A stretch of 64,000 nucleotides of DNA from an uncultured archaeon (GTDB lineage: Archaea; Asgardarchaeota; Lokiarchaeia; Sigyniarchaeales; SOKP01), in assembly GCA_964632315.1 (NCBI GenBank), contig CAZWEM010000004.1, positions 64,001 to 128,000 on the forward strand. The letters are read 5' to 3'. Within the stretch, counting starts at the first letter, position 1. The number at the start of each line of letters is the position of its first letter. The notes beneath the pieces were generated by a model. That model was given only the letters and a program-made list of their open reading frames with translations, ran no database searches and was not told where the DNA came from. The position numbers and the translations under genes were made by a program. Positions 36,232-48,536 of this stretch are shown piece after piece.

Positions 36232-37284
36232 CTAGGTTTGAGAAAGTAGTTCTATCAGAGCTCGTGGAATTTCCTTATAATTCTTTACTGCAAAAAACTT
36301 TCCTCTCCCGGCATTAGCAATTTCGCGACATGTGTCAATTCCCCGATCAGCATCATTATTAGCGGGCATTCCTATAACGTGTAATTTAGGAAAGTTTTTG
36401 GCTAATCCTATGGGATCCTTTCCACGATTATAATTCCCATCTGTAATTAATATCCCGAATTTTTGATGAGTCTTTTCTTTGATTTTGTTAAGTTCTTTTA
36501 AACCTTTTTCAAGACCAATAGAAATATTAGTAAACCCTACTGCTTCCGAATCCAAAATTTCATCAATAATAGTAAATACGGGTTTTTTCTGATCTATTTT
36601 TTTGAGAGTCATCGCTGTAGAATTAAATAGAATGATGGCGAATTCCTCCTTTTCCATATTATAAGCAAGGACAGATGTAGTCAATGCAGCATTCAGTAAT
36701 AATCGTCCATACATGCTACCGCTCGTGTCAAGGATCAAAACAACCTTCCTTTTTTGTCTTTGTCGCTTAATTCCATGTATATCATTATATGCGAGTGTTT
36801 TATTAGCAACTTTTAAAGGGTGGTGTTGCAGAGTCTCATCCAAATCAAACTCGGGTTCTCCTATTTGATAAAAAGGTATGACCTTCTTGAATGAACCCCT
36901 TATTCCTTTACTTGTAATTCTTAAGGAAGTTTTTATTATACTTTGACGAGCTAATCTTCGAAAAATATATTTATACTTTTTAGAGATGGGTCTTCTTATG
37001 AAAAAGTAAACTTCTGCCATAGATTCAGCTGACTCTTTGGCTTTCTCTGTGAAGAATTTTACTCCTTCATCAGAATCTAATGCATCAGTTGCTGCATATA
37101 CGTTTGACTTCAATAATCCCATTATTGCTTCCAAATTTTTATAACTTATAGCTAAATAAGTCAACTCTTTAATTTGTTTATAATCTAAAGAATTTGCTAA
37201 ATGTAGATAATAATCTGGCTTTCTCTTTTTCTTTCGAATTATCTCATACCTCAAAATTTCATTATCAGGGATCCTTTCAGTCAT
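36232..37284 (-). CDS. VWA-domain protein (MoxR partner)
   Basis: MIDAS motif DTSGSM, GFTNI, ITDG; the frame stays open upstream to 37356. Confidence 0.88.
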   Translation of the reverse strand: MTERIPDNEILRYEIIRKKKRKPDYYLHLANSLDYKQIKELTYLAISYKNLEAIMGLLKSNVYAATDALDSDEGVKFFTEKAKESAESMAEVYFFIRRPISKKYKYIFRRLARQSIIKTSLRITSKGIRGSFKKVIPFYQIGEPEFDLDETLQHHPLKVANKTLAYNDIHGIKRQRQKRKVVLILDTSGSMYGRLLLNAALTTSVLAYNMEKEEFAIILFNSTAMTLKKIDQKKPVFTIIDEILDSEAVGFTNISIGLEKGLKELNKIKEKTHQKFGILITDGNYNRGKDPIGLAKNFPKLHVIGMPANNDADRGIDTCREIANAGRGKFFAVKNYKEIPRALIELLSQT

Positions 37285-37340
37285 CCTAACATGGAGACGC
37301 TGCTTCTCCTTCTCCTCTTCTCTAGGGGAAAAATCATCGA

Positions 37341-38213
37341 TTATTGAAAATCCGTCTTATTTAGCACTGTAAGGACTAGATCAGTTATAACTTCAGATTT
37401 GTTTCGAGTAATTCCATCTTCTAATTCAATTTTATTATGTAAAGACATAATTGAATTTTCAATCCACTCTTTTGTGCTTTTTGAATTACCTGTTCTTGAA
37501 ATGATATCTGCTAAGTCAATTGCTCCTCTTATTGAACTTCCACGTCTGAGAGAACTACTCCCCCTTGAAAGTTGAACAATTTTTTGAGCAATTTGTGCTA
37601 TTTTTTCTCCTTCCGAATCATTTAGACTCGCTTCTTTCTTAATTATTAAGACTTCTTCGTCAGGATTTTGATAATCCAATTTTATCCAGATAAATCTGTC
37701 TTTTAATGCTTCTCCAAGTATAGTAACTCCAATATGAGCTGCTGGATTTTGGGTAGCTATAACAAAAAAGTTATCCTTAGCTTCAATTAGCCCTAGTTTA
37801 GGAATATCAATAATCCGTTCATCTAAGGAAGTTAAAAGAGAGTTTTGAGTGTTTTCTGGCATTCTGTTAATCTCGTTGATGAATAAACAACCACCATTTT
37901 GCATTGCTTTGGTTAATGGACCATAAATATAGGAATCTTTAGTATAACCATTTGAAATGGCGAGTGGCGGATCAAAATATCCAATAAGATTATGCGGCAA
38001 AGTTTCCTCAGAACAATCTATCCTATAGAAATTAGAATCAAAATAAGATGCTAAAGCTTTAGCTATTGTAGTTTTTCCCACTCCTACATCTCCCTCAATA
38101 AGGATATTTTTCCCTACTGAACGTGCTAAAATCATTTTTCGTAATTCTTCTGACCTACCAATAATAGCATACTTCTGTTGTATTTCTTTGACAGTTTCAG
38201 ACACATCTACCAT
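37341..38213 (-). CDS. MoxR-family AAA+ ATPase
   Basis: GDVGVGKT, FINEINR, ATQNP, ALKDRF. Confidence 0.9.
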   Translation of the reverse strand: MVDVSETVKEIQQKYAIIGRSEELRKMILARSVGKNILIEGDVGVGKTTIAKALASYFDSNFYRIDCSEETLPHNLIGYFDPPLAISNGYTKDSYIYGPLTKAMQNGGCLFINEINRMPENTQNSLLTSLDERIIDIPKLGLIEAKDNFFVIATQNPAAHIGVTILGEALKDRFIWIKLDYQNPDEEVLIIKKEASLNDSEGEKIAQIAQKIVQLSRGSSSLRRGSSIRGAIDLADIISRTGNSKSTKEWIENSIMSLHNKIELEDGITRNKSEVITDLVLTVLNKTDFQ

Positions 38214-38342: not shown

Positions 38343-39194
38343 ATGCCGATATCTTCCGAATTTATCAAGCTGGTCGAAGAAGTATCAAATGAAATTAATT
38401 TACCAACAATAAAAGATATTATTGTACCACCCTACAATAATGAGTCAAAGAAAGCAAACTTTTCTGCAATTGTATTAGAGGATTCTACAATAGGTTTAAT
38501 TTTTATCAATCTTAATCCAACAATTAAACAAAAATTTAAAACAGAGGACTTTTCGAAATTAAAAAAGAGGGGATTATTGCAATTATCAAGATCATTTAAA
38601 TCTAAGGACTTATTTGAAAAATCACTGGGTTTAGGTTGTATTAATGCGATTAGCCAATTCATTTTTAAAAAAGCAAACTTTAATCTTAATTTCACATCTG
38701 ATTCCCTTGGCTTGCTAAATATTAAACATAATGATATAATTGGCATGGTAGGTTTTTTTCCACCCTTGGTAAAATTAATTGAAAAAATCGGATCTAAATT
38801 GATTATCATTGAAAAAAAACAAGAATTAGTTCAAGAGACAAATTCATGGACAGTAACCCTTGAACCAAGTAAGTTAAAAGATTGTAATAAAATTTTAATT
38901 ACAGGAACTACAGTTTTAAATGAAACAATCGATAATATTTTACAGTATTGTACAAATGCAACACACGCATCTATTATAGGGCCTTCTGCTAGCTTTCTGC
39001 CGGATCCTATATTTGAGCGAGGTATTAATATTATAGGGGGTGCCTTCGTTATTGATTCAGATTATTTAATCAGATCGATACAAGGAAATATAAAATGGGG
39101 TAAATCTGTTGAGAAATATGTTATTCATAGGGAAAATTATCCAGGATATGAGGATTTTATTTCTCATATACTCAAAAACAATTCACAATTATAA
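38343..39194 (+). CDS. DUF364/DUF4213-family protein
   Basis: LGCINAISQ, MVGFFPPL, ITGTTVLNETI and GPSASFLPD motifs. Confidence 0.82.
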   Translation: MPISSEFIKLVEEVSNEINLPTIKDIIVPPYNNESKKANFSAIVLEDSTIGLIFINLNPTIKQKFKTEDFSKLKKRGLLQLSRSFKSKDLFEKSLGLGCINAISQFIFKKANFNLNFTSDSLGLLNIKHNDIIGMVGFFPPLVKLIEKIGSKLIIIEKKQELVQETNSWTVTLEPSKLKDCNKILITGTTVLNETIDNILQYCTNATHASIIGPSASFLPDPIFERGINIIGGAFVIDSDYLIRSIQGNIKWGKSVEKYVIHRENYPGYEDFISHILKNNSQL

Positions 39195-39197
39195 GCT

Positions 39198-40076
39198 TCA
39201 ATTAAAAAAAATGTGATATAACGAGGGCATATTAGGAATTGGAAGAAAATTAAATACATAAAGAAATAGGAATGCAAATCCAAGTAATGTAAGAACTATA
39301 AAAATCATATCTAACAAATTAAACCGAATTTTAATTAAGTTTGTCCTTGTTTTATAGATCCCAAAACATCGATTCTCCATAGAAAGAGAGGTTATTTGTC
39401 CTTTTCTCAAAGTAGATACCAAGGTCCCAATCATTCTCTCAGTGATAAATGAATATGCTTTACGAAACGTTTTAACTTGATCCATGCTAAAGCCACGTGC
39501 TTTTTGAGCTAATGCAATTGTTTTAGCCTCTTCTTCAATTGAAGGAATGAATCGAAGACCCACCATAAAAGCAAAACAAAATTTATATGGAATTCTCATT
39601 TTGATTAGCGCGTACACAAAATCTTTAGGAGAAGTTGTATTAGTAAACAATATCGCTGAAGTGTAAAGAGTTAATATAATAAAGAAAGCTTTTAAAGCAA
39701 AGTATACTGCTAATCTTCTAATTGGTAAAAATCGTAAGTTAAACAAATAAAATAGAATGATTTCATTCTCAGTTGGCAGGGCATTAAAAAAGATATTTAA
39801 AACAACACTAATTAGCAAAATTATTACCATAAAACGTAATTTTTTAAAAATAAACTTTGGTGTAATTTTGGCTATAAACAACATAATGATAACAGATAAA
39901 GATAATAAGGATTGTAAAATAATGCTACCAATAAGGAAGGTTTCGATTGTTAGAAATAAAAGAAATAATAATTTTGAAATTGGTGTTAATTTGTGAAAAA
40001 AAGAATTGTTTGAAATATATGCAAATAGATAATCTCTATTATCTAATATTCGGTTTTTATGTGCCAGATAATTCAC
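39198..40076 (-). CDS. ecfT: ECF transporter T component
   Basis: HKLTPISKL, LRFIP, AQKARG, SMENRCF. Confidence 0.92.
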   Translation of the reverse strand: MNYLAHKNRILDNRDYLFAYISNNSFFHKLTPISKLLFLLFLTIETFLIGSIILQSLLSLSVIIMLFIAKITPKFIFKKLRFMVIILLISVVLNIFFNALPTENEIILFYLFNLRFLPIRRLAVYFALKAFFIILTLYTSAILFTNTTSPKDFVYALIKMRIPYKFCFAFMVGLRFIPSIEEEAKTIALAQKARGFSMDQVKTFRKAYSFITERMIGTLVSTLRKGQITSLSMENRCFGIYKTRTNLIKIRFNLLDMIFIVLTLLGFAFLFLYVFNFLPIPNMPSLYHIFFN

Positions 40077-41866
40077 ATCCCTTGTATGAGTTTATTTATT
40101 TTATTTAATAATAATATTGGTCCAAGATTTTGATGTTTATTGAAATAGTTCTCTTTGGTGTCATAATCAATTAATGTACCATTTTTATTCAATTCTAAAA
40201 TTCGCTTGGTATATTTTAATAGGAGATGATAATCATGTGAGGAGATTATAATTGTTTTGCCTCTTTTATTTTCTAAATAAAGCGTCTCAATTAGAAAATC
40301 TATTGTCCTTTGGTCTTGCCCTATAAAAGGTTCATCTAATAAAATAATTTCTGGATTATAAATGAAGATTGAACTTAAATTCAATCTTCTTTTCTGGCCC
40401 CAGCTTAATTGGAAAGGATTTCGATTCTGATCTACAATACCTATTAATCTAATTAGTTTGTTTAAGTATTGATCTGAAATTTTATCTGCTATATTAAAGT
40501 TTATGGGAGCATATAATATTTCATCTTTTAAAGTTTGTTTAAAGATCATATTTTCTGGATTCTGAAATATAAATCCGATTTTTTGAGCATATTCAATTGG
40601 ATCAATGCTGCTTAAATTCATTCCGTTAAAAAAAATCTTTCCTTTGGTTGGTTGGTATAGATTAGCTAATAAATACAACAAAGTTGTTTTTCCCGAACCG
40701 TTTGCTCCAATTACCCCTATAAAATCGCCTTTCTCAATCTTTATGCTTAAATTCTCGATTGCTTTGATTCCACTATTAGGGTATTTAAAACCTAACTCTT
40801 TAGTTTCTAAAATTACATTTTTTTCAGTAATTTTATTATTTCTGACTGAATCTTCAGGTATTTTACCTTTTAGCGATTCAATGTACAAATCTGAAAAAAG
40901 AATTTTTAAATCATTAGGATTGTAAAATTCTTCAGTTTTAGGATTAATTTCGGAATCAAGAGTAATTTTCTTTAATAAGATAAGATCTTTTTTGTTTAAA
41001 TCTCCGATAAGGTCAAAGATCTGCTCGAAATGAATTGGTTTTGGTGTATTCGGATGATTTTGCTTATTTAATTGATTAAAAACATCACTGAACCATGGAA
41101 CCCTAAGATTACACTTTTTTAACACATTATAATCATTTGTAAAAACTTCTCCTATTTTCCCCTTTACTTGAGATTCTCCGTTCTCATTTAAAACAAGAAT
41201 TTTATCTGCAATATCCAATACCCTAGCTAATCGATGTTCAATTATTATGAGTGTAAGGGAATATCTCTCTGATTGTTTTAATTTTTTTAATTGATTTAAT
41301 AATAAACTCTCTGAATTTTGATCTAAATAAGCAATTGGTTCGTCTAAAATTAAAATTTTAGGTTCCATTGCCAAAAATGAACTAAGTACGGTAAGTTGTT
41401 TTTGACCCCCACTCAATTGATTTATATCTCTATTTAGTAGATGTTTAATTTGCATAAATTCGGCAATCTCATCTACTTTTTTTACTATATCTTCTTCTGG
41501 ATATTGTAAATTTTCTAAACCGAAAGCTATTTCATCCCTAACTGTAAATGTAGTTAATTGATCTAATGGGTTCTGGTTAACTAGGCCAACTATTTTACTT
41601 AATTCCGAAAATTTATAATCCCATACATCTTTACCAAAAATCTTTACAGACCCTTTCATATAACCCTTTAATCGCCATGGAATAATACCATTCATCGCAT
41701 AAGAGAGGGTAGATTTTCCGCTTCCACTTGGTCCAGCTATGATTAACGTTTCTCCATCTCTAAGCTCAAAAGTAATATTTGAAACTGCAGGAGTTTTATT
41801 TTTTTCCTTTCCATAAATAAAAGAGAAGTTATCATAAGAAAGGGCGGCATTATTAATTAGGATCAC
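40073..41866 (-). CDS. ECF transporter fused tandem ATPase (A-A')
   Basis: Two NBDs: GPSGSGKS/LSGGQ/LDEP and GANGSGKT/LSWGQ/LDEP; QNP Q-loops. Confidence 0.92.
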   Translation of the reverse strand: MILINNAALSYDNFSFIYGKEKNKTPAVSNITFELRDGETLIIAGPSGSGKSTLSYAMNGIIPWRLKGYMKGSVKIFGKDVWDYKFSELSKIVGLVNQNPLDQLTTFTVRDEIAFGLENLQYPEEDIVKKVDEIAEFMQIKHLLNRDINQLSGGQKQLTVLSSFLAMEPKILILDEPIAYLDQNSESLLLNQLKKLKQSERYSLTLIIIEHRLARVLDIADKILVLNENGESQVKGKIGEVFTNDYNVLKKCNLRVPWFSDVFNQLNKQNHPNTPKPIHFEQIFDLIGDLNKKDLILLKKITLDSEINPKTEEFYNPNDLKILFSDLYIESLKGKIPEDSVRNNKITEKNVILETKELGFKYPNSGIKAIENLSIKIEKGDFIGVIGANGSGKTTLLYLLANLYQPTKGKIFFNGMNLSSIDPIEYAQKIGFIFQNPENMIFKQTLKDEILYAPINFNIADKISDQYLNKLIRLIGIVDQNRNPFQLSWGQKRRLNLSSIFIYNPEIILLDEPFIGQDQRTIDFLIETLYLENKRGKTIIISSHDYHLLLKYTKRILELNKNGTLIDYDTKENYFNKHQNLGPILLLNKINKLIQGM

Positions 41867-41872
41867 CCTCTA

Positions 41873-42478
41873 TTAAAATGTAGTTGGTACGCCAGCTTTT
41901 ATAAGACTACTTTTTACCACTTTACCCAATAATCCAACAATTAACATGCCTGAGATAAAAGCAAACATGAAAGCAAGGACCCATAAAGACCAGTGGAGAG
42001 CCCATCTCTGATTTACTATCCAGAAAAAAGGAGCTTGAAAAAAGTTGCCAAATCCCCCTGCAATAGCCCATCCTAATTTCGTTTCACCTTCCCCAATTTT
42101 TTCCATTAACCAGAATCCGCCTGCCAAACATAATCCTTCCATTACATTCACAAAAATGATTAGTAAACCCCAAGGATCACCAAATAAAAACTCAAGTAAT
42201 CCTTTAGAAAACATAGTGATTAATATATTAGGTTTTTTTTTAGTTAAACCGTAAATTATTGACGCCCATATGACATGATGCCCACTTATTAATTGCGTGC
42301 CCCCTGTTAAAGGATACCAAACTTTAATTAGTATACTAAAAGGTATTAAGCTAGATATAATCCCTCCCAATACCCCAATTATTGTAGAATAGAGTAAATC
42401 TAAATTAGTTATCTTCTTTGACTCAACTTTATACCCTGTTTCTCTATATGTTTCATTAGTTTTTTCTTGGGTTTCCAT
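41873..42478 (-). CDS. ECF transporter substrate-specific S component (YkoE-like)
   Basis: ~200 aa, about 6 TM segments, directly upstream of the A and T genes; C-terminal LIKAGV. Confidence 0.8.
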   Translation of the reverse strand: METQEKTNETYRETGYKVESKKITNLDLLYSTIIGVLGGIISSLIPFSILIKVWYPLTGGTQLISGHHVIWASIIYGLTKKKPNILITMFSKGLLEFLFGDPWGLLIIFVNVMEGLCLAGGFWLMEKIGEGETKLGWAIAGGFGNFFQAPFFWIVNQRWALHWSLWVLAFMFAFISGMLIVGLLGKVVKSSLIKAGVPTTF

Positions 42479-42517
42479 TTTTTTATCTTCCTCAATATTA
42501 TGAATTATTTTGTATTT

Positions 42518-43066
42518 TCATATGATTTCAATCAAAGCTAATTGTTGAACTGAATATTGCGAGCTAACTTCCCCAATAGGCATGACTGATTGATTTAAAG
42601 CAGATCTTAAAGGTCCGTCTCCAAATAACGGGTAACCTCCTTCCGCATACGCAATTATAACCAAGTTAGGATAATTTCTAGCTATTGATAAATTTAAAGG
42701 TTGCGGAGAACGATAAGCATCTCGCCCCCATAAAATAAATGTCAGGGAATTAGGGTTGTCATTTAAAATATCCTCCACTTCTAATATACTCCAAAGAGAT
42801 ACTCCAGAGTATACTTTTTCGTAAGAATTTCCCACTCTATTTTCAAAAAAGAATTTTTGATCGATGACTTGGATATACTTACTTGATTTTAATTCGTTTA
42901 AATTGATCGTTATATCTCCTTTTACTCCAGATCCATTAATTTTTATGGTATTTGGATTCTGAAATAAATTGATATCTAAAGTGATCACCGCATAAATCGT
43001 AAGCCAAAATGCAGTTAATGCGATACATATAGACGCTACTAAAATATAAAAGTTCCTTCTATTCAT
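42518..43066 (-). CDS. Membrane-anchored protein with sulfite-oxidase-like Moco-binding fold
   Basis: N-terminal TM; YSGVSLWSIL, GRDAY, IIAYAEGGYPL.GDGPLR. Confidence 0.7.
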   Translation of the reverse strand: MNRRNFYILVASICIALTAFWLTIYAVITLDINLFQNPNTIKINGSGVKGDITINLNELKSSKYIQVIDQKFFFENRVGNSYEKVYSGVSLWSILEVEDILNDNPNSLTFILWGRDAYRSPQPLNLSIARNYPNLVIIAYAEGGYPLFGDGPLRSALNQSVMPIGEVSSQYSVQQLALIEII

Positions 43067-43079
43067 AGAATTCTCAATT

Positions 43080-43943
43080 TTAATAATTTTTGGTATAATA
43101 TTTTTTTTTATAATAATAGATTATTGATATAAGGCTAATCCCTAGCAATAAGTTAATTATTGGAAATCCATCTATGCTTTCACTCTGGAATATCAAATTA
43201 AGAGAATGAGTATATGATACGGAATGATCCTGACTAAATGCAGAATCATTAATTACTCCTATATTAAATTCATATAATTTGGTTCTATCAAATTGAATGT
43301 CAAAATCCTTATCAGATGTGGATAGTTTTCTAGAAATCTCTAATGTATAATGGGAATTAAAGGCTGTTGTATATCCAAGTCCTATTGTTGAGAGATCATT
43401 TTCATTGGTATGACCGTTAGGACCAAAACTTTGGTCTATCCCAAAGCCATTTGAGTTATTAATCGGCGAAAGCTCATTGATGTACCAAACCCATGAATCA
43501 ATATATCCACCGCCCATATGAGAAGTATCCATCCCACCTGGGTAATATGCGGTAAAATTAGGCACGTTTATATTCCAACACATATAAAACCCATCTCTAG
43601 TACTTGGATGAGTGGTATGATCTGGCCAAACACATAAAATAAAGAGATTATTATCATTTCTTATAAATGACATGTTAAGAGTAGTGATAATGGCATGGTC
43701 TATAGTGGAGACATTAATTTGAGCATGACCTTCATTATTTTCTTGCCAAAAAGTCTCATTTGTAATACCATCTAATCGTATATTAGCATTTGGATAATAA
43801 GGAACGTTTATTATTTGTCCTGTATGATGTTCTCTACAATCTCCAGAGAAAGCTTTTGAAATTGGGATGATAAATAGAATTATAAGGAAAAAAAACAATA
43901 AAGAGACATTTAATAGTTCTTTAAGTTTCAATTTTACTCTCAC
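43080..43943 (-). CDS. Secreted DOMON/EB_dh-like protein with Loki-CTERM-like anchor
   Basis: Signal peptide, IRLDGITNETFW, LCVWPD, IDSWVW, YTLEISRKLSTSD..DIQF, C-terminal IDGFP-TM-KKK. Confidence 0.7.
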   Translation of the reverse strand: MRVKLKLKELLNVSLLFFFLIILFIIPISKAFSGDCREHHTGQIINVPYYPNANIRLDGITNETFWQENNEGHAQINVSTIDHAIITTLNMSFIRNDNNLFILCVWPDHTTHPSTRDGFYMCWNINVPNFTAYYPGGMDTSHMGGGYIDSWVWYINELSPINNSNGFGIDQSFGPNGHTNENDLSTIGLGYTTAFNSHYTLEISRKLSTSDKDFDIQFDRTKLYEFNIGVINDSAFSQDHSVSYTHSLNLIFQSESIDGFPIINLLLGISLISIIYYYKKKYYTKNY

Positions 43944-45091
43944 GAACTTGTGATTGTGACGTTTATTAAATAAAGGTATTTAATATATTGAGCTCTTGGC
44001 CGACCAGGAACTAATATACTAAAAGGTCCACTATCGTATCCTAATTCTCTAGCATAAGGCCAAACTGGATCAGTTACACCAAAACCTGTTTCTCCCCATT
44101 CTCTTTGTTTATTTACTAAACACATAAGGAGATTCGTATCTGGTAGGGGGACTCCTGTAAGATCTTGTTGAGATTTATTGACTCTATCTGCAGCAATATA
44201 GGGAGGGACAATACCATCTTCAACATCTGATTGATCATATGCAGCGACATCTTCACTTGGACTAACAACCCCATCCACAGCATATAGTCTCAATGAATAA
44301 TTCTTTCCGTTAGCAGAAGTATGTGATATTATTTCGGAGATATTCCGACCCCAGTACTGTCTATTAAAATTCCAATCATCAAATCTGTTATAGGAATAAT
44401 TTGCAGTAAATTCATTAAGATTCTTATTTTGTGGAGTTATCTCATACTCCTCTACTCCATCAACTTGTACTGAGACTGTCCAGTTATCTTGTACTGCTAT
44501 CTTTTCTAAATTAAGGCATTGAACATTCCAGTTTTTACCTATTATTGAAAAATTACCATAAGTATCACCTAATGGAGAATCTGCTAACCATTTGTTATCC
44601 GCTGCTATAACAATTACTAATGGATCCTGCGGACCTTTATACATTTTTTGCACTATATTTTGAGAAGAAACTTGTTCTTGTACCGTTTGTCCTTTAGCAG
44701 TTAAATTCATAGTATTTGCGTAAAAGGTATCAAATTTTTCGAGTACATTTAATAAATCTACTCCTGTTACTAAATGATCATCATAATAAAATTGATAACA
44801 AAATATCACGTCTTTATATTCATTGATTCTTGAACCAGACGTGTCTTCATCTTCCTCCATAGCTAATTGAATCCCTTCTAAAATGTCTGATAGAGTTATC
44901 TTTATTGTATTTGTTTGATTGTCAAGCATAAAGTAGGCACCATTAGGAGCAGTACTCCAATCAGCGGGTAGCCCTTTATATCCTTCTTCTTGAGGTTGAG
45001 GTTGATTCAGAATGAATATTAATCCAATTCCACCAGCAATCGCTACTATTGCAATTAAGCTTATTCCAATGTAGATATCTTTTTTCTTCAT
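43940..45091 (-). CDS. Membrane-anchored protein with two divergent Moco-binding-like domains
   Basis: N-terminal TM; TGVDLLNVL, YWGRNISEII, YAVDG, GPFSILVPG...YIKYL. Confidence 0.6.
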   Translation of the reverse strand: MKKKDIYIGISLIAIVAIAGGIGLIFILNQPQPQEEGYKGLPADWSTAPNGAYFMLDNQTNTIKITLSDILEGIQLAMEEDEDTSGSRINEYKDVIFCYQFYYDDHLVTGVDLLNVLEKFDTFYANTMNLTAKGQTVQEQVSSQNIVQKMYKGPQDPLVIVIAADNKWLADSPLGDTYGNFSIIGKNWNVQCLNLEKIAVQDNWTVSVQVDGVEEYEITPQNKNLNEFTANYSYNRFDDWNFNRQYWGRNISEIISHTSANGKNYSLRLYAVDGVVSPSEDVAAYDQSDVEDGIVPPYIAADRVNKSQQDLTGVPLPDTNLLMCLVNKQREWGETGFGVTDPVWPYARELGYDSGPFSILVPGRPRAQYIKYLYLINVTITSS

Positions 45092-45127
45092 TTTTTATGA
45101 AACTGAGTTTAATTGATTTAGATAATT

Positions 45128-45151
45128 CGATATAAATTATTAAACATAACG
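45128..45151 (-). promoter_or_regulatory. ModE-box-like operator overlapping a TATA-like element
   Basis: CGATATAAA-TTATTA-AACATAACG fits CGNTATATA-N6-TATATANCG and lies 37 nt from the 45091 start. Confidence 0.55.
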
Positions 45152-45253
45152 TTTTTAATTCGACTAATTTAACATTTGTTATATTATTTATTTAATTGAG
45201 GGAATCTAATATCCTCATTAATTGTTAAAAAGAAAAAAAAAAAGACTTATATG

Positions 45254-46678
45254 TTATACCAAAATTAGCATTTCTATACAATTTCTATTCCAATACGGCC
45301 CTAGATTGATATCTGATTGTACCGTCATGTTGATTATGGATCGGAAAGGACCATCATCCAAGGGATCAAAATCAGTTCCACCGTAGGCAAAAATGCATTC
45401 AGCATAACCAGCGTTCATAAGTTTAGTGATGTTCAAATAACCTTCTGCATGTTCCACAGAATTATACCCATCAGCTGCGATGAACGTATAATTTACGGCT
45501 CCACCTGTTAGTAAAGATTCTTTTTCGAGAATATCCCTGATGGAAACGCCTGAATATGTCCCATTTCTATCTATGCTTCGGGCATAAAATTGATTCGTAA
45601 ATTGCTGGTATTTACTTGATGTTAATTGTGTCATTGTCAATGATATACTACCCGTAGTTCCGCTACCATCAAAAGTGATAAAGGGTTCCCCTATAATTTG
45701 CATCTCCGTACAATTTCTATTCCAAAACTTGCCAAGATTAGGATCTGGATTTACTGTCATATTGATGATTGATCGAACAAGTCCATCACTTTCAGGATCA
45801 AAATCTGTACCACCGTAGGCAAAAATGCATTCAGCATAGCCAGCATTCATCAATTTAGTGATGTTAAAATAACCACCAGCAGCTACCGCAGAATTATAGC
45901 CATCAGCTGCGATGAATGTATAATTTACGGCTCCACCATTCAATAATGATTCTTTTTCGAGAATATCCCTGATGGAAACGCCTGAATATGTCCCATTTCT
46001 ATCTATGCTTCGGGCATAAAATTGATTCGTAAATTGTTGGTATTCACTTGATTGCAAATCAGACATGGTTAGTGATAAAGCACTTGTCGTTCCACTACCC
46101 CATATCGTCATTACTACATCTTCTGGTTCAACTCCTGCTATGATTTGCATCTCAGTACAATTCTTATTCCAAAACTTGCCAAGATTTTCATCTGGAAATA
46201 CGGTTATGTTGACGATTGATCGAATAAGACCATCTACTTCTGGAATAAAATCAGTTCCACCATATGCAAAGATGCATTCATCATAATCAGCATTAATCAA
46301 ATCATTGATATTAAAGAAGTAGCCAGCAGCTACAGCAGAATCATACCCATCGGCTGCAATAAATGTAAAATTTAATGCATCACCAGTCAATAGGGATTCT
46401 TTTTCGAGAATATCTCGAATGGAAACACCGGAGTAAGTTGCATTTCTATCTATACTTCGGGCATAAAATAGATTCGTAAATTGACGATATTTACTCGATT
46501 TTAGCTCGGACATGGTTAATGTGAAATCATTCGTGGTCCCACTGCCCTTTATAGTCAATACTACATCTTCTTCTTGACTTGGAGGTTGATTCATAACAAA
46601 ATAAACACCAATGCCAATTCCAGCTCCTACTAAGACAATTATTAAAACTATAATTCCAATTTGAGCACTTTTTTTCAT
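45254..46678 (-). CDS. Membrane-anchored surface protein with three tandem Moco-binding-like domains
   Basis: N-terminal TM; three repeats of YSGVSIRDILEKE..FIAADGY..CIFAYGG..DG.(I/V/F)RSI..WN.NC. Confidence 0.75.
   Translation of the reverse strand: MKKSAQIGIIVLIIVLVGAGIGIGVYFVMNQPPSQEEDVVLTIKGSGTTNDFTLTMSELKSSKYRQFTNLFYARSIDRNATYSGVSIRDILEKESLLTGDALNFTFIAADGYDSAVAAGYFFNINDLINADYDECIFAYGGTDFIPEVDGLIRSIVNITVFPDENLGKFWNKNCTEMQIIAGVEPEDVVMTIWGSGTTSALSLTMSDLQSSEYQQFTNQFYARSIDRNGTYSGVSIRDILEKESLLNGGAVNYTFIAADGYNSAVAAGGYFNITKLMNAGYAECIFAYGGTDFDPESDGLVRSIINMTVNPDPNLGKFWNRNCTEMQIIGEPFITFDGSGTTGSISLTMTQLTSSKYQQFTNQFYARSIDRNGTYSGVSIRDILEKESLLTGGAVNYTFIAADGYNSVEHAEGYLNITKLMNAGYAECIFAYGGTDFDPLDDGPFRSIINMTVQSDINLGPYWNRNCIEMLILV
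45257..46567 (-). repeat. Three intragenic tandem repeats (spacings of 447 and 432 nt)
   Basis: gattctttttcgagaatatc occurs at 45516, 45948 and 46395; 45516-45604 is identical to 45948-46036. Outer boundaries are approximate. Confidence 0.9.
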
Positions 46679-46737
46679 ATTTATCAGTTAGGTTTTTTAA
46701 AAGATTTATGTCTAATTTGTAATTAGTGTTATTTAAG

Positions 46738-46761
46738 TGTTATGTATGGACAGTCATAACG
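46738..46761 (-). promoter_or_regulatory. ModE-box-like palindrome upstream of the operon
   Basis: TGTTATGTA-TGGACA-GTCATAACG (GTTATG-N10-CATAAC), adjacent to a minus-strand TTAAATAA TATA-like box. Confidence 0.55.
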
Positions 46762-47030: not shown

Positions 47031-47768
47031 TTAAGGTAAAGTAATTATATTTGTGCTCTCATCAAGATTGATAATACTCTTTACAGCTAATTGTTTTATA
47101 GTTCTAACAGCCATTATCGGGGGAACATCTAATAATTTCTTTAACTCATCAAGATTACAACTCCCTTGATCCATTATGGTTGCAATGATATCTACTTCAG
47201 GGATTTCCTGCTCAGAATTTTCAATTAAGAAAGATGTAAAGAAGTTATTCCGTTTTAAATAGGTCATTTTTTTATTTAATTCTTCCATTTTATCTTGTGT
47301 ATAAAGAGTTTTTAATTGAGCTTCTCGTGCTTCATTATCAATCTTTTGTTGTTCTAACTGGCTTTTTTCTTTTTCCTCAGCTAAAATTTTGTCATTTAGG
47401 ACTGACAAATTCGATTGAACATCATTTAACTCCATAGTTGGAGTGTTGAGTTCATTTTGTAGTCTTTCAAGAGTGGTAGTTAATTCTGTTGATTTTTTTG
47501 TTAACTCCAGTTTTGATGCTTTTAAATCATTTAATTTTGAATCAAAATCCCCAAATTTCGTTTTTAGTTCAGTTAGTTCTGAATTTTGAATCTCCAAGTT
47601 GGATTCAAGCTTTTTAATCTCTTCTTGTTCAGTTTTTAACATCTTCCACGAATTTCCAATATTTTGAATTGCATCTTCAGTATTTTTTTTAAATGATTGA
47701 ACGTACTCATCAAAGTTCGATTCTAACTGTTCAATAGCAGCAAGTACATCTTTTAAGTTTGAGCTCAT
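47031..47768 (-). CDS. Long coiled-coil protein with C-terminal winged helix
   Basis: ~170 aa of heptads, then IIATIMDQGSCNLDELKKLLDVPPIMAVRTIKQLAVKSII. Confidence 0.75.
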   Translation of the reverse strand: MSSNLKDVLAAIEQLESNFDEYVQSFKKNTEDAIQNIGNSWKMLKTEQEEIKKLESNLEIQNSELTELKTKFGDFDSKLNDLKASKLELTKKSTELTTTLERLQNELNTPTMELNDVQSNLSVLNDKILAEEKEKSQLEQQKIDNEAREAQLKTLYTQDKMEELNKKMTYLKRNNFFTSFLIENSEQEIPEVDIIATIMDQGSCNLDELKKLLDVPPIMAVRTIKQLAVKSIINLDESTNIITLP

Positions 47769-48536
47769 TTAAAAATCAACCTCTTCTTTTAATTTTATAG
47801 TTTCAGATTGTTCATCATAGATAATGGGTCCATTTTCTTCAAGCATTTTAGCTATGAATCTTTTCGCTTTATCTTCTCGCATATCAATTGCAACTAATAT
47901 GTTTTTTAAATCAAGCGTACTACCTACTTGGAGAGTTTTTATAAGTTGTAATAAAGAAGAGTTAAGATATTTCTTATTTATCAAAATTTTCATAGCAGCG
48001 ACTCTATTTTCGTATGACTGCACATATCTTTCCTTCTTGAGAAAGGTTTTTTCAAGTTCATCTTCAAGATCTTTTAGTTTTGAAGAAAAAATTTCATTTT
48101 CTCGGGAAAGTTCCATGAGAACATTTTCCAATTCTTTCAATCTTTTGTTTCGATTCTCAAATTCTTCTCTCTTTGATTTGATCGCCAAATTTGTTGATTC
48201 TATAGCTTTGTGATTTTCATCTATCTCATTTAGCAATTTTTGTCTTTTTTCTGATAATAATTTATTATCCTCTTCAAAATTCCCGATATCTCGCTGAGTT
48301 TGAGATATCTTATTTTTAAGATTGTTGATCTCCTCGTAGTTTTCTTCGATTTGTTTTATTAACTTATTTTTTTCTTTTTCATAATTTTCAATAGCTTCTA
48401 AAACAAGTTCGGGTTGCGCCCTTAATTTCGGGATATAATCACTATTTACCCCGCTTATATTAACAATTGTTGAAACTATTTTTTTTAAAGATGTTTTGGC
48501 ATCTAGAAGTGGAACTTCACTCATCCTTATCTCCAA
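47769..48536 (-). CDS. Long coiled-coil protein with C-terminal winged helix (similar architecture to neighbour)
   Basis: Heptad region, then LDLKNILVAIDMREDKAKRFIAKML...IIYDEQSETIKL; stop abuts the next ATG. Confidence 0.72.
   Translation of the reverse strand: MEIRMSEVPLLDAKTSLKKIVSTIVNISGVNSDYIPKLRAQPELVLEAIENYEKEKNKLIKQIEENYEEINNLKNKISQTQRDIGNFEEDNKLLSEKRQKLLNEIDENHKAIESTNLAIKSKREEFENRNKRLKELENVLMELSRENEIFSSKLKDLEDELEKTFLKKERYVQSYENRVAAMKILINKKYLNSSLLQLIKTLQVGSTLDLKNILVAIDMREDKAKRFIAKMLEENGPIIYDEQSETIKLKEEVDF

Follow-up and report, generated by a model that had tools for sequence, protein, structure and literature searches.

A candidate ECF-type salvage system for the tungsten/molybdenum pyranopterin cofactor in an uncultured Asgard archaeon

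YkoEDC of B. subtilis (structure of its S component, 5EDL) is a group I ECF transporter that resembles the locus studied here in its operon of S, A, A', and T components, in a weak PF09819 relationship, and in the architecture of an ATP-driven micronutrient importer. Thiamine is contacted in YkoE by Y46, W49, E77, Q95, and D131 (PMC5037267). PruR (7KOM, 7KP2, 7KOS, and 7RKB) is a Cys-less SUOX-fold protein in which small pterins are bound by a hairpin that is truncated and bears a PW motif; its operon also encodes a GGDEF-EAL protein of the DcpA type, and PruR acts as a regulator of DcpA, a diguanylate cyclase; in A. tumefaciens PruR the pterin is stacked by Y104 and W160 and hydrogen-bonded by N102 (PMC11194511). 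Several hundred "orphan molybdoprotein" genomes encode the enzymes without the cofactor pathway and often without a metal transporter (PMC6147048). Our literature search found no prokaryotic Moco uptake system (ECF or other) and no Moco auxotrophy in Asgard archaea. To our knowledge, no organism is known to have a transporter for the Mo/W cofactor, nor are ECF systems known to work with binding proteins outside the cell. C. elegans reportedly acquires dietary Moco that is made externally and probably protein-bound, and eukaryotic Moco carrier proteins are said to exist. The source of the cofactor is likewise external in that case, but the organism is a eukaryote, and no transporter was identified there.

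The locus was analyzed in a window of 64,000 nt (the whole stretch of DNA that was analyzed). Genes were called from ORFs together with Pfam and NCBIfam scans, and the calls agreed with the preliminary description of seven co-oriented minus-strand genes (39198–46678), some of them overlapping. Three of them encode the T, A-A', and S components of an ECF transporter, as had been proposed: ecfT of the CbiQ family (39198–40076; PF02361, 83.7 bits), a fused ecfA-A' ATPase (40073–41866; two PF00005 domains, TIGR04521 at 353 bits against a cut-off of 330, and TIGR04520 above its cut-off), and an S component from a small PF09819 subfamily (41873–42478; 30.4 bits against a cut-off of 25.2). With a CbiQ-type T component, two ABC ATPase domains, and an S component in abutting or overlapping genes (ecfT and ecfA-A' share 4 nt), the module is of the group I (dedicated) type.

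The other four minus-strand genes encode a 182-aa TM-anchored protein with a single SUOX/PruR-like domain (42518–43066), a 287-aa DOMON/EB_dh-like protein with a Loki-CTERM-like anchor (43080–43943), a 383-aa anchored protein with an N-terminal TM helix, one SUOX/PruR-like domain, and a C-terminal β-sandwich (43940–45091, likewise overlapping the 287-aa gene by 4 nt), and a 474-aa N-terminally TM-anchored protein with three tandem Cys-less SUOX/PruR-like domains (45254–46678). The three anchored SUOX-like proteins described previously were recovered; the domain total that can be demonstrated is five (3 + 1 + 1), not six. The gene assignment was corrected: the protein with a single domain is the 182-aa product, and the DOMON-like one is the 287-aa product. 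The latter assignment is weak, as both family matches were below threshold (PF09459 (EB_dh), E 0.033, 14.7 bits against 33.3; NF033507 (Loki-CTERM), 18.1 bits against 19.9). Its nearest Atlas cluster is from Promethearchaeota, with EB_dh in 16% of the members, and its position is conserved in relatives; beyond co-location, nothing was found in favor of a role for it in the system.

The operon is flanked by a convergent DUF364/DUF4213 gene (38343–39194, plus strand; PF04016, 108 bits), which ends 3 nt from ecfT as described, and by minus-strand genes for a MoxR AAA+ ATPase (37341–38213) and a VWA protein (36232–37284), which form a pair (36232–38213). The DUF364 gene was rejected as a part of the system because the loci of relatives lack a homologue; it sits in the slot that holds Moa/Moe genes in relatives. 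The DNA sequencing runs that matched came from salt-marsh and marsh metagenomes, and no RNA run was listed.

The surface domains had been proposed to have a Moco-binding fold, and structural comparison bore this out. A model of the 182-aa protein (pLDDT 93), in which the domain does not include the N-terminal TM helix, gave its best Foldseek matches to PruR (7kom, E 9e-7; then 7kp2, 7kos, and 7rkb, the last with neopterin; TM by target 0.63–0.69), followed by the Moco domains of SUOX enzymes (2blf, 1sox, 2a99, and 1xdq; E 1e-5 to 1e-3, TMq 0.55–0.62), and PF00174 matched the 474-aa protein with 37 bits. The closest solved relatives are the Cys-less PruR proteins. The 383-aa model (pLDDT 90.6) matched 7kom (E 1.6e-4) and SorA-type structures; its orthologues were found at five related loci, and it is the first cassette gene in most relatives. 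The 474-aa protein comprises three repeats of approximately 145 aa each, which gave three internal tblastn matches and 99% in hhalign against the 182-aa family. Alignments of this family by hhalign with the 383-aa protein (E 0.15) and with the fused S component of family f13 (E 0.009) were not significant, and PDB sequences searched with the A1 profile yielded SorA and PruR below threshold only. The kinship of the 182-aa, 383-aa, and fused domains was accepted on the basis of structure, Pfam matches on other fusions, and the A5 profile, not hhalign.

The domains share the fold (TM ~0.6) and the motifs YSG..L..IL, F.G.DGY, and GP.R with SorA, chicken SO, and YedY/MsrP; unlike these enzymes, they are extracellular and anchored and have neither redox partner domains nor the Mo-ligating Cys, and they are predicted to be non-catalytic. 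In the enzymes this Cys sits at the tip of the long β-hairpin; across 31 homologues of the 182-aa protein no Cys is conserved, and the long hairpin of that protein (strands 66–75 and 81–90) reads ENRVGNS; the 383-aa protein has one Cys in a hairpin strand, which is not conserved. In the same 31 homologues, D116 was invariant and Y118 and Y171 were near-invariant, in motifs that would correspond to those of the ligand residues of PruR, and the fused forms have D-G-Y and W in these motifs. PruR is likewise a small exported domain, with non-catalytic pterin binding demonstrated. The archaeal domains differ in having a long hairpin, in being tethered to the membrane or joined to a subunit of the transporter, and in occurring in up to three tandem copies; the PW motif was not found in the 182-aa protein or its homologues, and their neighbors are ECF genes with no DcpA-like partner. 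The 182-aa protein, whose gene is always found beside that of the S component, is a candidate cofactor receptor.

The S component belongs to a rare family: a search of 1.84 billion proteins returned only 65 representative clusters at E ≤1e-3, some of them S::SUOX-like or S::A-A' fusions. In every family examined, S adjoins or is fused to a SUOX-like domain, which distinguishes it from YkoEDC; S::SUOX-like fusions were found in P0306, P0301, and P0311, in the Asgard families f8, f13, and f23, and in no fewer than 80 species of Anaerolineae. YkoE was the only PDB sequence match of the S component (24 bits, with marginal PF09819 membership), and some homologues are named thiamin/HMP permease by JGI. 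A weak HMMER alignment with 5EDL covered three of the five thiamine contacts (our own reading of the numbering, with an offset of 2); E77 is kept as E96, while Q95 and D131 are changed to E114 and W153. Thi genes were absent from every neighborhood looked at (this locus and those of relatives). ThiC was present in the genome itself, in 52 of 54 f1 genomes irrespective of the S state, and in none of 59 f8 genomes. The concern that S might be a thiamine-specific YkoE with thi neighbors was thereby set aside; in contrast to YkoEDC, its distribution tracks the loss of Moco rather than thiamine biosynthesis, and the element upstream of it resembles a ModE box, not a THI riboswitch.

In E. coli, the ModE operator is a CGnTAT...ATAnCG inverted repeat of 9-6-9 geometry, located before Mo/W transport and cofactor genes. 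The two ModE-like boxes noted earlier proved to be genuine palindromes of the form CGTTATG-N10-CATAACG. Operator 1 (46738–46761, minus strand; CGTTATG-N10-CATAAC; PWM score 24.9) lies 60–83 nt upstream of the 474-aa gene, and operator 2 (45128–45151, minus strand; CGTTATG-N10-TATATCG; 23.4) lies 37–60 nt upstream of the 383-aa gene. They were the only sites scoring >20 in a PWM scan of the 4.45-Mb genome, and the operator is conserved upstream of orthologous operons at six other loci. The same ModE-type motif precedes tupA and moaC in relatives, at sites outside the PWM training set. The search for a ModE regulator in the genome returned a 137-aa ORF with a ModE-type HTH (51 bits against a cut-off of 98.5), in which no Mop domain was seen.

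In relatives without the S family, the same slot, bordered by a coiled-coil pair on one side and MoxR-VWA on the other, holds TupA-TupB-WtpC-like genes followed by MoaC-MoaA-MoaD-MoaE-MoeA-MoaB-MoeA. The sister genomes have a "make" route of oxyanion uptake and seven biosynthetic genes at the site where the ECF cassette would provide a "take" route with unrelated proteins, both serving cofactor supply. In one genome (G186), which lacks TupA, the Moa cluster comes after the ECF cassette. MoxR-VWA orthologues (66–85% identical) lie directly downstream at seven related loci, two of which retain MoaD-like and MoaB-like remnants. The pair flanks the ECF cassette and the Tup-Moa cassette alike and encodes candidate cofactor-insertion chaperones.

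The genome (99.5% complete, 8.6% contamination) encodes approximately 22 pterin enzymes (15 AOR genes, five PF00384 (DMSOR-type) genes, and two true SUOX genes). MoaC, the MoaA C-terminal domain, MoaE, MoeA, MoaB, and TupA were not found in it, and tblastn with TupA and with the Moa/Moe proteins of a close relative gave only weak, generic radical-SAM matches to MoaA at ~25% identity. A search for MobA returned sub-threshold generic NTP-transferase matches only. The single MoCF_biosynth match was rejected as MogA/MoaB, the protein being CinA-like. An oxyanion-type ABC system, comprising a PF13531 binding protein and a ModB/CysT-like permease, is present and could import tungstate.

Across 251 Asgard genomes, mostly MAGs, the S family was complementary to Moco biosynthesis, in accordance with the co-occurrence expected in the preliminary description. 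It was found in 99 genomes, of which 96 lacked MoaC and 95 lacked both MoaC and MoeA, while MoaC was present in 106 of the 152 S-negative genomes; these raw counts ignore kinship. MoeA tracks MoaC, and AOR was present in 246 of the 251 genomes. Five genera, and likewise families f8, f13, and f23, each include both S-positive and MoaC-positive members, the two states being almost mutually exclusive. Within the order, TupA was found in 20 of 23 MoaC-positive S-negative genomes and in none of the 25 S-positive genomes without MoaC, all 25 of which also lacked detectable MoeA and MoaB/MogA. A closed genome is S-positive and lacks MoaC, MoeA, and TupA. In a second phylum, 17 of 30 fusion-carrying Anaerolineae lacked MoaC, compared with nine of 141 in the class sample; AOR was present in 16 of these 17, and MoeA was missing in 13.

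These results strongly support, by comparative genomics rather than biochemistry, an import reading of the locus, and we assign a probability of roughly 0.7 to a salvage system for the pyranopterin cofactor of W/Mo enzymes; the Mo/W-pyranopterin cofactor is most likely what is imported. Outside the cell, the anchored Cys-less SUOX-fold domains (the 182-aa protein beside S and the 383-aa and multi-domain 474-aa proteins) would capture the cofactor, most likely metal-loaded W- or Mo-molybdopterin shed by other organisms or their proteins, and would hand it to the dedicated PF09819-type S component. ATP-driven import by the T and fused A-A' components would then equip the pterin enzymes, which are otherwise unsupplied, and the conserved downstream MoxR-VWA pair may aid the loading of apo-enzymes. 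The operon would be controlled by the palindromic operator that precedes tupABC and moaC in relatives.

Some observations count against import. The transporter and pathway occur together in three or four Asgard genomes (G186, G192, and G168, and G087 for MoeA) and in 13 of the 30 Anaerolineae fusion carriers, and the surface domains lack the Mo-ligand Cys. Neither transporter nor pathway was found in 46 Asgard genomes, among them 24 of the 26 f6 genomes and one genome that is 100% complete; the system is, therefore, not the sole answer to an absent pathway. Since Moco is labile when free, import presupposes a stable supply from outside, such as anoxic sediment or protein-bound cofactor.

An alternative that we regard as unlikely is the import of a metal-free pterin (molybdopterin or another precursor), with W/Mo entering separately and being inserted by an unrecognized insertase, for example a chelatase-like MoxR-VWA. 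PruR-type domains do bind metal-free pterins (PMC11194511), four MoaC-less Anaerolineae carriers retain MoeA and fit this reading better, the genome has its own oxyanion-type importer, and MoxR-VWA is always adjacent. However, the 25 S-positive genomes of the order without MoaC have no detectable MoeA, MoaB/MogA, or TupA, cPMP is excluded for this genome by the missing MoaE, and MoxR-VWA stands beside MoeA in "make" genomes too and so does not replace it.

An ECF-type tungstate/molybdate importer, with SUOX-like domains binding the oxyanion and the cassette merely replacing TupABC, would explain why the cassette lies exactly at the TupABC site behind the same operator, and why G186 combines it with Moa genes in the absence of TupA. 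We consider it improbable, since an oxyanion would be useless to the 95 of 99 carriers without MoaC and MoeA and since the fold is a pterin-binding one. Import of a pterin other than Moco, whether of the neopterin/monapterin type or a precursor of folate or methanopterin, as a nutrient or as a PruR-like signal, is very improbable: the closest solved structures bind such pterins, but the Moa/Moe complementarity, Tup-Moa swap, and common operator all point specifically to the Mo/W cofactor, and the long β-hairpin, truncated in PruR, is kept here with no DcpA-like partner. A YkoE-type thiamine/HMP importer with unrelated surface proteins, as the automatic annotation and the YkoE match would have it, is scarcely credible, since the sequence similarity is weak (30 bits for the PF09819 family and 24 for YkoE), two aligned contacts are changed, thi neighbors are lacking, ThiC is present whatever the S state in f1, and fusion to a SUOX-like domain has no rationale for thiamine.

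The salvage system would most likely be the first cofactor-import system of its kind proposed for a prokaryote. We lean slightly toward the broader view that the intact W/Mo cofactor is a micronutrient traded among anaerobes, on which auxotrophs, comprising approximately 40% of the Asgard archaea sampled and a considerable number of Anaerolineae, would live by means of a dedicated ECF transporter with PruR-like receptors. If true, this would be the first Moco/Wco transporter in any domain of life and the first ECF system with external receptors, would widen the newly recognized group of PruR-type pterin binders to include archaeal proteins and a transport function, and would give a concrete, testable answer to the "orphan molybdoenzyme" genomes. 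The cofactor would join the goods exchanged in syntrophic communities, which would bear on the partner dependence of Asgard archaea and on their difficult cultivation.

The source genome, a Lokiarchaeia-type Asgard MAG of 4.45 Mb (completeness 99.5%, contamination 8.6%), contains 15 AOR-family, 5 PF00384, and 2 genuine SUOX genes. Profile searches for MoaC, the MoaA C-terminal domain, MoaE, and MoeA, in which the controls matched, yielded no match in this genome. When a relative's proteins were searched against it using tblastn, only weak radical-SAM similarity was obtained for Moa/Moe and no match for TupA. To judge from its gene content, the organism is unable to produce the cofactor itself. 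The lone MoCF_biosynth protein was considered and set aside as CinA-like. One SUOX-family protein (356 aa, SorA-like, 108 bits; G000:C45, L017 2997-6368, minus strand) is encoded in an apparent operon with AOR and polyferredoxin genes, and the second (197 aa, MsrP-like) lies on G000:C8 (L018 3501-4094). An ABC importer at G000:C10:31772-35678 (L016 3773-7678) comprises a PF13531 binding protein without an NCBIfam name, an ATPase, and a 550-aa double permease scoring above the ModB and sulfate-permease cut-offs; it is possibly an oxyanion importer (tungstate, molybdate, or sulfate), in a genome in which MoeA was not found.

The seven co-oriented genes described previously were recovered by ORF calling at 39198-46678 on the minus strand, where they overlap or are separated by short gaps. 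They encode a CbiQ-family EcfT, a fused ATPase (ecfA-A'), a 201-aa S component that passed the PF09819 cut-off narrowly, and four further proteins. Each of the 182-, 383-, and 474-aa proteins has an N-terminal transmembrane helix, and the longest consists of three tandem repeats of ~145 aa; the 287-aa protein gave only sub-threshold matches to EB_dh and Loki-CTERM. The convergent DUF364 gene does end 3 nt from ecfT. MoxR and VWA genes lie downstream of the cassette (36232-38213, minus strand). On its other side, the site is flanked by two abutting coiled-coil proteins of ~250 aa (47031-48536, minus strand), and the same pair was found at this edge of the site in many relatives (L001, L005, L010, L027, and L028), providing a synteny anchor.

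The structure of the 182-aa protein was predicted with 31 homologues (pLDDT 93). Searched against the PDB using Foldseek, the model ranked PruR pterin-binding proteins on top (7kom, 7kp2, 7kos, and 7rkb, the last with neopterin), and Moco domains came next (SorA, chicken sulfite oxidase, nitrate reductase, and YedY), which agrees with the Moco-binding fold that the preliminary description had proposed for the surface domains. PruR is an exported, Cys-less SUOX-fold protein for which pterin binding has been demonstrated (PMC11194511), and it is the precedent for a pterin binder of this fold without catalysis. The archaeal family likewise has no conserved Cys in the alignment with the 31 homologues; unlike PruR, it keeps a long beta-hairpin. 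In the same alignment, D116 is invariant and Y118 and Y171 are near-invariant, and by a reading of motifs rather than a superposition, these residues would fall in the motifs holding the pterin contacts of PruR. Homology between the 182-aa protein and the repeats of the 474-aa protein was found by hhalign (99%), and the repeats match PF00174 weakly. About six such domains had been claimed; the fold held and the number did not, because the 383-aa protein (pLDDT 90.6) was modeled as one SUOX-like domain and a beta-sandwich, leaving five.

For the transporter part, ECF importers and YkoE provide the known frame. When 1.84 billion representatives were searched exhaustively, only 65 clusters of S-component relatives were retrieved; in some of them the relative is joined to A-A', in others to a PF00174-like domain. 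Across Asgard contigs (Loki-, Hod-, and related), the gene order [383 aa]-[EB_dh-like]-[182 aa]-S-AA'-T-...-MoxR-VWA is repeated. The Asgard families f8, f13, and f23 have an S::SUOX-like fusion followed by AA' and T, and in family f28 the S component and the SUOX-like domain are encoded by adjacent genes. A 454-aa S::SUOX-like fusion is present in at least 80 Anaerolineae species. A fusion of this type was also seen on a bacterial-looking metagenome contig (L019 9424-12498), where it is followed by AA' and T; downstream of these are a 308-aa protein without a family assignment, a phosphodiesterase/nucleotide pyrophosphatase of family PF01663, and a pair of small PF00174 proteins (158 and 155 aa). 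Speculatively, dinucleotide cofactor forms might be shortened by the pyrophosphatase.

Phyletic counts were obtained from one 251-genome phylum sample, used for every search, and the S family was defined by PF09819 above its cut-off or by a match to the S component of the window at E <=1e-10. AOR was found in 246, MoaC in 109, and MoeA in 115 of the 251 Asgard genomes. The S family was present in 99, of which 96 had no MoaC, as opposed to MoaC in 106 of the 152 genomes without the S family (odds ratio 0.014, naive and uncorrected for shared ancestry). The association anticipated between S homologues and a missing Moa/Moe pathway was therefore observed. The two states alternate inside genera g1, g2, g3, g6, and g9; the S family and MoaC occur in 36 and 19 genomes of family f8 with none carrying both, in 17 and 2 of f13, and in 12 and 1 of f23. 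The closed 4.4-Mb genome G213, from the same order, carries the transporter and six AOR genes and lacks MoaC, MoeA, and TupA. Exceptions with both the S family and MoaC are G186, G192, and G168. A further 46 of the 251 genomes have AOR and neither MoaC nor the S family, including 24 of the 26 f6 genomes and, at 100% completeness, G141 of the window's own genus, which is also without MoeA and TupA; these genomes imply that another transporter, or another route of supply, has gone unrecognised.

In three sister genomes without the transporter (G113, G204, and G008), the interval between the same coiled-coil and MoxR-VWA pairs is occupied by another gene set, consisting of TupA-, TupB-, and WtpC-like tungstate transporter genes and then MoaC-MoaA-MoaD-MoaE-MoeA-MoaB-MoeA. 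In G186, the ECF cassette is followed by that Moa cluster, and at two other loci (L001 and L003) only MoaD-like or MoaB-like remnants are left; DUF364 fills the slot in the window and is found there in none of the relatives. Within the order, TupA occurred in 20 of 23 MoaC-positive, transporter-negative genomes versus none of 25 transporter-positive, MoaC-negative genomes. The MoxR AAA+/VWA pair, 66-85% identical across genomes (L026, L027, L028, and L010), comes in every case directly after the Moa/Moe cluster or the ECF cassette, and its VWA protein has weak CoxE-type matches. The arrangement is suggestive of a chaperone, for cofactor insertion or maturation, common to both routes.

The two ModE-like boxes noted earlier proved to be copies of the palindrome CGTTATG-N10-CATAACG, which is kept 45-95 nt upstream of the first cassette gene in six other loci. 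In a whole-genome scan of the source genome, the PWM score exceeded 20 at the two window sites only. The palindrome also precedes tupA and moaC in G204 and G008, at sites left out of PWM building, and the operator is therefore common to the synthesis and putative import cassettes. A candidate regulator acting on it is a 137-aa ModE-type HTH protein (G000:C8:79410-79682; L023 1486-1899, minus strand; TIGR00637 at 51 bits, below the cut-off), the ORF of which adjoins a gene for a CBS-domain protein. A weak operator copy (G000:C5:54552, PWM score 16) precedes an AOR gene (AFOR_N match at C5:54641-55249) by ~90 nt.

In a second phylum, MoaC was absent from 17 of the 30 fusion-carrying Anaerolineae genomes, compared with 9 of 141 in a class sample (completeness >=85%); 16 of these 17 carriers have AOR and 13 lack MoeA. 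In that sample, 3 of 9 MoaC-negative and 7 of 132 MoaC-positive genomes carried the fused type. Many Anaerolineae carriers retain the Moco pathway, a common situation in vitamin salvage, and in G259 and G260 MoaC lies no more than a few kb from the fusion gene.

The system most likely imports a pyranopterin cofactor. A metal-free pterin as the cargo would fit some lineages, as four Anaerolineae fusion carriers (G254, G270, G273, and G274) are without MoaC and retain MoeA; however, the Asgard genomes with the ECF cassette in place of the Moa genes lack MoeA, MoaB/MogA, and TupA, from which we infer that the metal arrives with the imported cofactor. Small signalling pterins, an oxyanion, and thiamine are the other rival cargoes. 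Thiamine is opposed by the distribution of ThiC, which is present in the source genome and, whether or not the transporter is there, in 52 of 54 family f1 genomes, and in 0 of 59 of family f8, so that the S family does not follow HMP auxotrophy; the sole PDB sequence match of the S component is YkoE, at 24 bits, and this weak alignment covers three thiamine-contact positions, two of them with a different residue.

Literature searches retrieved no proposal of a prokaryotic Moco/Wco transporter. Among the partner-supplied goods listed in the MK-D1 paper are B12, biotin, lipoate, and TPP, and Moco is not one of them. "Orphan molybdoprotein" organisms were described by Peng et al. and left without explanation (PMC6147048). 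For the organism studied here, import of the pyranopterin cofactor would proceed by capture on the SUOX-like surface domains and transfer to the S component, with MoxR-VWA possibly acting as the chaperone.
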